Below are positions 1 to 3,000 of a stretch of DNA of 35,868 nucleotides, piece after piece. The position numbers were made by a program. Source of the DNA: a virus (Duplodnaviria; Heunggongvirae; Uroviricota; Caudoviricetes); the IMG/VR virus record IMGVR_UViG_3300029735_000262, positions 1-35,868 of that record; one strand, 5' to 3'. Within the stretch, counting starts at the first letter, position 1, and every line of letters begins with the position of its first letter.

Positions 1-3000
1 ATGAAGATATCTCTTGTAGTTCCTGTCTTCAATGAAGAAGAAGCGATACCAATTTTTTATAAAACGGTACGTGAATTCGAAGAATTGAAGCCATATGAAG
101 TGGAAATCGTTTTCATAAATGACGGCAGCAAAGACGCTACGGAGTCAATTATTAATGCTCTGGCTGTTTCAGATCCTCTAGTTGTTCCGCTGTCATTTAC
201 ACGAAACTTTGGTAAAGAACCAGCATTGTTTGCAGGGTTAGACCATGCAACAGGCGATGCCGTTATTCCTATTGATGTTGACTTGCAAGACCCGATTGAG
301 GTTATTCCTCATCTGATTGAAAAGTGGCAAGCAGGTGCCGATATGGTACTTGCTAAACGATCTGACCGCTCAACCGATGGGCGCCTGAAGCGAAAAACGG
401 CTGAGTGGTTCTATAAGCTCCACAATAAAATAAGCAATCCGCAGATAGAGGAAAATGTTGGAGATTTCAGGCTGATGTCTCGCGAGGTAGTGGAGAACAT
501 TAAGCTTATGCCAGAACGAAACCTGTTCATGAAGGGGGTTTTGAGTTGGGTGGGTGGTCGCACTGATATCGTTGATTATGCCCGCGCAGAGCGTGTTGCT
601 GGCAGTACAAAATTCAACGGTTGGAAGTTATGGAACCTGGCGCTTGAGGGGATAACGAGCTTTTCAACCTTTCCTCTCCGCATGTGGACCTATATAGGTT
701 TGTTAGTTGCTGGCGTCGCTTTTTTGTATGGTTCATGGATGATTATTGACACTATTGCGTTTGGGAATGCAGTTAGAGGTTACCCCTCACTTCTGGTTTC
801 GATTCTTTTCCTTGGTGGAATACAGCTTATTGGGATCGGCGTACTTGGAGAGTACATAGGAAGAATTTACGTAGAGGTTAAGCAGAGACCGCGCTATATA
901 CTTAAGTCTAAGGCTGGAAATTAAAATGACTATTGATAGAAACTCTAGAATATTATTCTTCTTCGCGCTATTCGCCTTTTGCTTCATCATCATGGTGATG
1001 AGAAGGCCCGACCTAATTTCTAACCCGCAATTCTGGGCGGAAGACGGAAAGATATGGTACGCTCAAGCACACAACCTTGGGTGGTTCAACTCTATAATTT
1101 TACCGCAAAATGGTTACTATCAAACAATATCAAAGCTCACTGCGGCCATTTCTCTAAATTTCTCATTGGCGTCAGCACCATTGGTAATGAATATAATAGC
1201 AATTTCTATTCGGTGTACGCTGGTGCTATTTTTAATGTCAAACCGTGTAAGTTGCCTCTCATTTTTAAACAGGGCAATTATAAGTGCATTTATTCTTTTC
1301 ATGCCGCATCTTGAAGAAGTTCATGCGAACATAACAAATACACATTGGTATCTTTCAACTTATCTTTTTTTCATACTGATATCAGACCGTGCTGAAAGCA
1401 ATCTATGGAAAGGCCATGATATTCTTGTGATGGTAATATCTGGATTGAGCGGGCCCTTTATTGTATTCCTTGCGCCTATTCTTGCTCTTCGAATGTTATC
1501 AGAATCTAACGGCGTGGGATTTGTTGATAAAGCAACCAACGCAATTAAAAAGATATCATTATTTGAAGTGATTTTTGGCATCATATGCCTGATACAACTT
1601 TGTACGATACTTATTTCTCAGTCAGGTGATAGAAGTGCCGCCCCGTTGGGAGCAAGCATTCCAATGCTCGCAAACATTCTATCTTCAAGGGTTTTTATTG
1701 GTTTCCTTACTAGCGAAAAGCAATCGTTACACCTATGGGACCAGCAAAACTTGAATTATTTAATTTCAGTCGCCGGATGCTTAGTATTAATTTTCCTTTT
1801 AATAAAAGGGAACTGGAAAGAAAAATCAGCTGTAATCTTCCCCTTCCTTATGTTATTTGCCGCATTAGCAAAACCAATGATCCATCTTGAGTTACCTCAA
1901 TGGCCAAGAATTCAGTTTGGGTCTGGGCAAAGATATTTTGTTATTACAAGTATATTCTGGGTAACGTGTATTCTATTTTCTGTGCAACATTTAAGTAATC
2001 ACTTAAGAATTACGTGCACCTTCTTACTTGCTTTATTCATAGCAATCAGTGGATATCAGAACTTCAATATCCATAAACTTCCTGATAACAGATGGGATAA
2101 AGAGGTGGTCAAGTACAATGACACACCAAGTGGGAAGAGAGTTATTCTGGATATAAACCCTAAGGGATGGAAGATTGATTTAATCAAGTAAAAGCCCCTC
2201 CTGAGGTGGTGGCATTTTCAGAATGCCCCACCCTATATGAACTGACCCCATAAAATTGGACAGTGATTTGCTAGGCTGTCATATTCCGTTTTTTTACTCT
2301 CGCAAGTCAATCTGCTGTTCATATATTTGTATTACAATTAACTTTACCAGATAATATCAGGCGTGGTGCTGGCATCTGTTGCCGTCACCGCGTCAATGTA
2401 ATCCAGCACAGCGTTAAGGCGGGTTGTTTCTGCCTGCGTCAGCTTCCGTCCGGCCTGTAATTTCAACTGAATCAGACTGATGGAAGCCATTGCAGCATCA
2501 ATCAGTGACTGCCGATGTATTTCTGCCGCTTCTACTGCGGCACCGTGTTGTGCCTCAGTATCTGTTACCCATTTCTCACCATCCCATTTATCGTATGGCG
2601 TTAACGGGGCGATAGTGGTTGTCTTATCAGGGTAATCACCAAGTTCTGTGATTTCTTTCGATTCGCCCGTTTCGGTGTTATAGATAATTTCACCTCGATG
2701 GTCAGGCACATATTCCCATGATTTCAAATCGTCAGCACGGCAAATAGCATAACCTGTTTTATTTTTTCCTGGAGCATCTAAACAGGAATGTGCGGGTATA
2801 CCGACACCTATGGCAAGATATTCAATTGATGTAGAAATATATTCTCGCGTCTCACCATCATAATTATAAACGGTAATATCTCCGGCTTTTACGGCGATCA
2901 ACGCATCATTTAATACAGCCCTGTCCATTATGCAGCCCTCACGATATAGTTAAATGCTATGTTGCGTGGTCTAACTTCATCCGCGACCTTCATCCCTTCG

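Follow-up and report, generated by a model that had tools for sequence, protein, structure and literature searches.

In Shigella, Salmonella, and Escherichia coli, phage-borne gtr cassettes are among the main causes of O-antigen variation. The closest described relatives of the type-specific protein considered here are the enzymes GtrV of phage SfV and GtrX of phage SfX, which both glucosylate rhamnose of the Shigella flexneri backbone and differ in specificity, each modifying a different rhamnose. The Gtr model, with its successive GtrB, GtrA, and type-specific enzyme steps, is established (PMC7685785, PMC3688519, PMC2629481). The published topology of GtrV comprises nine transmembrane helices and a re-entrant loop (PMC3259042, PMC2629481); its periplasmic loop 2 can be exchanged with that of GtrX with function kept (PMC3259042), and its residue D380 is implicated in function, as Korres and Verma (2006) are cited in that work (PMC3259042). 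Here, we compare with these systems a locus found in 35,868 nucleotides of viral DNA (Caudoviricetes; IMG/VR record IMGVR_UViG_3300029735_000262, positions 1–35,868; hereafter ‘the window’), namely gtrB and the gene that follows it, gtr(type), which encodes a membrane protein of 421 residues.

Judged by its homology, this protein is an uncharacterized member of the GtrV/GtrX family in an ordinary serotype-conversion cassette. Very probably, an operon of three genes for O-antigen glucosylation ends in window positions 1–2191, which hold its second and third genes; an SfV-family prophage would carry it for lysogenic conversion, and it would act by the Gtr mechanism. A preliminary description of the window had already proposed a serotype-converting gtr cassette with a GtrC-type gene beside the tail-fibre module, and homology, synteny, and fold bear that proposal out.

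The gtr operon

The gtrB gene occupies window positions 1..924 on the plus strand (ATG at position 1; 307 residues). Its product, a putative bactoprenol-phosphate (undecaprenyl-phosphate, UndP) glucosyltransferase, is as recognizable as had been claimed: it matches Pfam Glycos_transf_2 (GT2; 2.8e-31) and, among PHROGs, both phrog_841 ‘GtrB-like’ and phrog_34335 GtrB (E 1e-166 and 4e-181), and it shares 90% protein identity with SfV GtrB. At the nucleotide level, gtrB is 83–86% identical to its counterparts in SfI, SfII, SfIV, SfV, and HF4s. A single base separates its stop codon from the ATG of gtr(type) (926..2191, plus strand), the predicted product of which is a type-specific glucosyltransferase of the GtrV/GtrX family with a GT-C fold. 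Both open reading frames lie exactly where the preliminary description placed them, within 1–2191, and the 421-residue product answers to its account of an AT-rich gene for a polytopic membrane protein: the GC content is 37.7% in gtr(type), against 43.9% in gtrB and 51.6% in the remaining window, and the protein is strongly hydrophobic, with approximately eleven hydrophobic or helical segments.

The window runs from the gtrB start codon to the stop codon of an AlpA-like excisionase gene, and gtrA, the first gene of the gtrA–gtrB–gtr(type) operon, therefore lies outside it. Searching public assemblies for the exact 421-residue protein led to a contig (L001) that is 100% identical to window positions 1–12191. 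There, an intact gtrA (contig positions 8717–9079; 120 residues) overlaps the gtrB start by four nucleotides and encodes a flippase-like protein 91% identical to SfV GtrA; the operon is therefore complete in its source. An intact gtrA is likewise present in contigs L002–L005, and no contig inspected has a defect in any of the three genes. The region upstream is 80% identical to its SfV counterpart from 126 bp before gtrA, and the cassette is flanked, as in SfV, by the tail-fibre genes on one side and the int/att region on the other.

Read by eye, with no search run, the approximately 220 bp upstream of gtrA in L001 contain two GATC sites some 97 bp apart. A Dam/OxyR phase-variation switch of the kind found in Salmonella gtr operons was considered and set aside, the region being outside the window; in S. 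flexneri, the gtr operon has given no sign of phase variation (PMC3688519).

Under the Gtr model, GtrB would form undecaprenyl-phosphate-glucose from uridine diphosphate-glucose at the cytoplasmic face of the membrane, GtrA would carry this donor to the periplasmic face, and the 421-residue enzyme would place the glucose onto one sugar of the O-unit. The lysogen would consequently display a changed O-factor, and phages whose receptor is the unmodified O-antigen would probably adsorb to it less. A resulting block to superinfection is plausible, given the literature on related phages (PMC3636060, PMC3688519) and the linkage to fibre genes. The identity of GtrB to the SfV enzyme suggests glucose as the sugar transferred.

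Homology, fold, and specificity of the 421-residue protein

The 421-residue protein matches PHROG 19534 ‘glucosyltransferase’ over residues 8–421 (2e-74), and a tblastn search of 50,697 phage records (E ≤ 1e-3) returned SfV and SfX only: GtrV (AAB72132.1) with 40.6% identity, 95% coverage, and E 5e-78, and GtrX (AAA71895.1) with 35.6% identity, 94% coverage, and E 4e-66. In the same search, no similarity appeared to the type-specific proteins of SfI (GtrI), SfII (GtrII), SfIV (GtrIV), and HF4s—phages that are all within the collection—or to the GtrC proteins of P22 and epsilon34, the Salmonella GtrC families, and GtrIc-like proteins. The earlier statement that the protein resembles no type that can be named thus has to be withdrawn, given full-length homology to two of them. 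Scans with Pfam and NCBIfam gave no match, so that PHROGs alone supplied a name, and this may be why the type escaped naming at first.

Conservation was read from alignments that joined GtrV, GtrX, and as many as 106 homologues from databases to the protein. The invariant positions are R26, A38-E39-D40, G63, R107, P127, N135, T137, D165, Q224, P317, and R336-Y337, among which R26, A38, E39, and D40 are invariant across 107 sequences; the motifs that these residues define include RRPD...FWAEDG, GYYQT, and P..EVHANITNTHWYL. Identity to GtrV reaches 70% in residues 26–75, which correspond to its periplasmic loop 2, and amounts to 51% over the N-terminal 185 residues and 31% over the remaining 236; the C-terminal half is 29% identical to that of GtrX. 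D387, which belongs to an LPD motif in the C-terminal tail, aligns with D380 of GtrV and D381 of GtrX. This pattern suggests a division of labour in which the conserved N-terminal half most likely handles the common lipid-linked donor and the divergent C-terminal half most likely reads the acceptor.

GtrV and GtrX are 34.5% identical to each other and yet have different specificities. Similarity of this order therefore does not carry specificity, and the acceptor residue and linkage of the 421-residue enzyme are not predictable from it, as the preliminary description had held for the O-antigen modification. The enzyme might share the specificity of GtrV or GtrX, in which case the modification would be one already known: it belongs to the same family, it is slightly closer to GtrV (40.6%) than GtrX is (34.5%), it is carried on the prophage backbone known from serotype-converting phages of Shigella, and the O-antigens of E. 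coli O13, O129, and O135 share the S. flexneri backbone. We consider this unlikely, however, given the low identity of the C-terminal half to both enzymes, the evidence from GtrV chimeras that type specificity resides away from the exchangeable loop 2 (PMC3259042), and a distal fibre and assembly gene unlike those of the Shigella phages, which suggest a different host surface. Gtr proteins with identities of 40% or less have, moreover, been treated as distinct types (PMC2629481), and the comparison with known Gtr types yields 40.6% at best, below the high identity that would make the protein a known type.

An AlphaFold2 model built from 107 sequences (mean predicted local distance difference test [pLDDT] score 95.6; predicted template modelling [pTM] score 0.94) comprises approximately eleven helices of membrane length, short helices within the first loop, a small C-terminal beta-hairpin, and a C-terminal tail of approximately 43 residues. 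This confident model predicts the GT-C fold of lipid-phosphate-sugar glycosyltransferases, and the conserved acidic residues in the first extracytoplasmic loop, a GT-C trait, are present. A fold search matched only GT-C enzymes or GT-C-fold relatives, almost all of them lipid-phosphate-sugar or lipid-diphosphate-glycan transferases, and no Wzy, WaaL, acyltransferase-3 (AT3), or other acyltransferase was among the matches. A profile search of Protein Data Bank sequences found no match and hence no solved sequence relative, and the viral structure library BFVD, searched with Foldseek, yielded none that was significant (best E 6.5e-3, an Oenococcus phage protein). The helices and tail of the model are compatible with the GtrV topology, in which the N-terminus is cytoplasmic and the C-terminal tail periplasmic, and the charge bias of the helices gave no orientation. 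If the topology follows that of GtrV, most of the conserved columns lie in loops predicted to be periplasmic; the residues invariant in the family sit mainly in three places, namely the RRPD...WAEDG loop that follows helix 1, the loop with PxxxE...NxTN, and the LPD tail at the C-terminus.

Other assignments were rejected. An AT3 O-antigen acetyltransferase (like Oac or the Salmonella family II GtrC) was dismissed for want of an acyltransferase-3 domain in Pfam and NCBIfam and of any such fold match, and Wzy and WaaL were dismissed on homology (to GtrV and GtrX) and on fold.

The family to which the protein belongs is much wider than its phage members. In a scan of one genome per species, 285 species representatives encode a relative. 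Among Enterobacterales and a few other gamma-proteobacteria, 14 loci have a confident GtrB match; in 13 of these, gtrB lies upstream on the same strand, directly adjacent in ten and accompanied by a detectable gtrA in nine. No close gtrB or gtrA homologue was found within the 4-kb flanks of the loci from Acidobacteriota, cyanobacteria, Patescibacteria, Bdellovibrionales, and others, a few of which have weak partial GT2 matches of approximately 30% identity. These comparisons depict a broad GT-C clade that has no Pfam or NCBIfam model and in which the phage Gtr enzymes form one branch. A 2-kb contig labelled ‘Methanosarcina MAG’ (metagenome-assembled genome; L015), which carries a 40% relative, looks like a binning contaminant.

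This breadth bears on whether the protein acts on another periplasmic glycan (enterobacterial common antigen, lipopolysaccharide core, or capsule) or is a Wzy, WaaL, or AT3 acetyltransferase after all. No Pfam or NCBIfam model names it, and the acidobacterial, cyanobacterial, and patescibacterial members that have no gtrB within 4 kb imply that the family must serve other glycans, too. For the window protein, however, we hold such an activity to be very improbable: its homology extends over the full length of two enzymes experimentally shown to glucosylate O-antigen, its gene is tightly coupled to gtrB by the one-nucleotide gap, its fold matches GT-C proteins only, and it has no acyltransferase domain. 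O-antigen is the probable class of acceptor for the enzyme.

The exact protein is already public and annotated by homology: an identical sequence (P0121) is recorded as ‘MULTISPECIES: glucosyl transferase [Escherichia]’, including in E. marmotae. The assembly collection indexes it in 72 blocks, and the cluster listing counts 33 contigs; assemblies with the exact protein include GCA_023164625.1, GCA_019077185.1, GCA_017017195.1, GCA_025667265.1, SRR12769756, and E. marmotae genomes. Variants that differ by one residue are frequent, and proteins with more than 90% identity form a cluster with members from E. coli, E. marmotae, and Enterobacter kobei. When 5,426 complete E. coli genomes were searched with megablast and blastn, homologues of gtrB appeared but not gtr(type), the sole match to which was a 172-bp stretch of 69% identity; the allele is thus rare. 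Comparison of gtr(type) with an 86%-identical relative (L087) gave a ratio of nonsynonymous to synonymous substitution rates (dN/dS) of approximately 0.05, with dS near saturation, which indicates strong purifying selection. A frameshift, which the preliminary description had raised, is ruled out by this ratio and by the wide indexing of the identical protein: the gene is intact.

The same data inform the possibility that the cassette is silent cargo, its genes intact and without phenotype for lack either of a suitable host O-antigen acceptor or of expression. The same or a nearly identical gene occurs in E. coli, E. marmotae, and E. kobei and on three phage backbones, and many hosts may therefore lack the cognate acceptor. 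We nevertheless think silence improbable, if slightly less so than a GtrV or GtrX specificity, because purifying selection is strong, the three genes are intact in every contig inspected, and the upstream region is homologous to that of SfV.

An active O-antigen glucosylation operon remains our preferred reading, and several points weigh against it. The closest relative with biochemical or serological data is GtrV, and the positive-inside rule alone does not settle the orientation of the protein in the membrane. The gtrA gene and the promoter, on which expression in this genome would depend, are outside the window. Hosts within the cluster of more than 90% identity differ in their O-antigens, so that either they share an acceptor motif or the cassette is silent in some of them. 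Finally, distant family members have no gtrB within their 4-kb flanks, and the fold alone is thus no proof of the Gtr pathway.

Receptor-binding neighbours and exchange among prophages

The plus-strand gtr genes converge on two genes of the minus strand (2344–3692), as had been described for the operon and the fibre genes: a tail-fibre assembly (chaperone) gene (2344–2928; 194 residues; Caudo_TAP, 7e-27) and a mosaic tail-fibre gene (2928–3692; 254 residues; Collar domain, 1.6e-14). Fibre residues 1–108 are 95% identical to the SfIV/SfI backbone, and residues 94–254 are 60–65% identical to the fibres of HK106, 500465-1, and SKA5 (lambdoid side-tail-fibre ends). Within the 152-bp spacer between the convergent gtr(type) and assembly genes, a GC-rich hairpin at 2205..2232 (12-bp stem; −20.3 kcal/mol; z −3.1 on the plus strand and −2.2 on the minus strand) is a candidate terminator, and the annotation of SfV has a rho-independent terminator in the same relative place, 51 nucleotides after gtrV. 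The hairpin was found by folding; a consensus terminator scan passed over it, since no run of T comes directly after it. In the same spacer, 54 bp (2277–2330) match, at 87–89% identity, the tnpA 3′ end and the terminus of IS200/IS605-family insertion-sequence copies present in many E. coli chromosomes and plasmids; this segment may be the scar of an insertion-sequence end.

From position 3389 onward, which is the backbone junction with SfV, the window matches the structural modules of SfI, SfII, SfIV, and SfV at approximately 97% identity, and its gene order is exactly that of SfV. Identity and gene order together place the prophage among the SfI/II/IV/V-family temperate myoviruses of Escherichia, and the swapped module corresponds to window position 1 to approximately 3400: the gtr genes (with gtrA upstream), the spacer, the gene for fibre assembly, and the distal portion of the fibre.

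Draft assemblies carrying gtr(type), viewed through 10-kb flanks, place related cassettes on other backbones. A P2-like prophage (L002; GCA_025667265.1, positions 8597–12453) contains a block that is 97.9% identical to its window counterpart and that starts approximately 120 bp before gtrA, takes in gtrABC, the spacer, and the fibre assembly gene, and ends with the last fibre codons; it is inserted between the tail-fibre gene of that prophage and its invertase/sheath region. A second piece, from the fibre collar region, is shared at 98% identity (window 3197–3414), and the intervening window positions 2972–3196 are not common to the two prophages. On a third myovirus backbone (L087; Logan SRR23563555, positions 2231–6927), the 86%-identical gtr(type) follows gtrA–gtrB and converges on a tailspike-type gene for an 825-residue beta-helix (NosD-like) protein, with an integrase gene and an S24 repressor-like gene directly upstream. 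The presence of the cassette on three phage backbones, each time beside receptor-binding genes, indicates that it moves between phage types and stays by those genes. Indeed, gtr operons have already been described for Salmonella in association with P22-like, P2-like, and lambda-like prophages (PMC2629481).

The prophage of the window adjoins dacD (dacD–sbmC) in three contigs; in a further contig (L004, positions 7170–8563), the same prophage is found at tRNA-Arg(CCU) (argW), in the order tRNA-Arg, P4-type integrase, gtrA. In the dacD copies, approximately 60 bp before the gtr promoter region (L001, positions 8503–8563) match the 3′ end of that integrase gene. Comparison of these sites suggests that the integration module has been exchanged next to the cassette.

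We see an about even chance that the enzyme defines an undescribed Gtr type—acting on another O-antigen residue or linkage and giving rare lineages of E. coli and E. marmotae an O-factor not yet on record—and that gtrABC moves together with the fibre assembly gene and a portion of the fibre gene as one unit among SfV-like, P2-like, and third myovirus backbones, coupling receptor recognition with receptor modification. In ten of twenty E. coli O-units with a glucose side branch, the O-antigen cluster has no matching transferase gene, and the side branch in those ten is known or proposed to derive from Gtr genes elsewhere in the chromosome (PMC7685785). Assigning the gtr(type) allele to its modification would fill one cell of such a table and would aid in-silico serotyping and the explanation of phage host range in carrier strains. 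Pathway, family, and genomic arrangement are textbook for serotype-converting phages, and no concept is changed; the predicted GT-C structure of a GtrV/X-family enzyme that has neither a Pfam model nor a solved relative is a small, useful by-product.

Two other segments of the window stand apart from the cassette. At 23297–24625, two plus-strand genes lie amid minus-strand late and lysis genes; the first encodes 273 residues with no Pfam or PADLOC match and the second a small membrane protein of 160 residues with a weak DUF4064 match, and the pair may represent a moron or accessory genes. The other segment, approximately 450 bp long (32546–33000) and located upstream of a YfdP-like gene, has no convincing open reading frame, corresponds to no Rfam family and no tRNA, and is 98–99.5% conserved in SfIV, Stx2c-converting, and other temperate phages.

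Comparison with described Gtr systems

The nearest described system is that of SfV, whose GtrV is the serotype 5 glucosyltransferase. In both, the type-specific gene follows gtrA–gtrB and is convergent with a terminator (a candidate here), a fibre assembly gene, and a fibre gene, and the two enzymes are of similar length (417 residues in GtrV, 421 here). The systems differ in that gtrV and the gtr(type) gene have no nucleotide similarity beyond the first 240 nucleotides or so, in that the fibre tip and the assembly gene are not the same, and in that the present prophage resides in Escherichia (E. coli and E. marmotae), integrated by dacD or at argW, whereas SfV integrates at thrW (PMC3636060). 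GtrX of SfX has the same conserved loop motifs as the 421-residue protein and is more distant from it than GtrV.

The solved GT-C enzymes (ALG12, Pmt1/2/4, ArnT, AftA/AftB, PglB/AglB, and PimE) are only 6–11% identical to the 421-residue protein, which is much smaller than they are and has a soluble tail of approximately 43 residues in place of their large periplasmic or lumenal domain. The other Gtr types (those of SfI, SfII, SfIV, HF4s, P22/epsilon34, and Salmonella) occupy the same operon position and have the same presumed role; among them, GtrIV and GtrIc have a different topology (PMC3259042), and the Salmonella family II GtrC is an acetyltransferase (PMC7448272).

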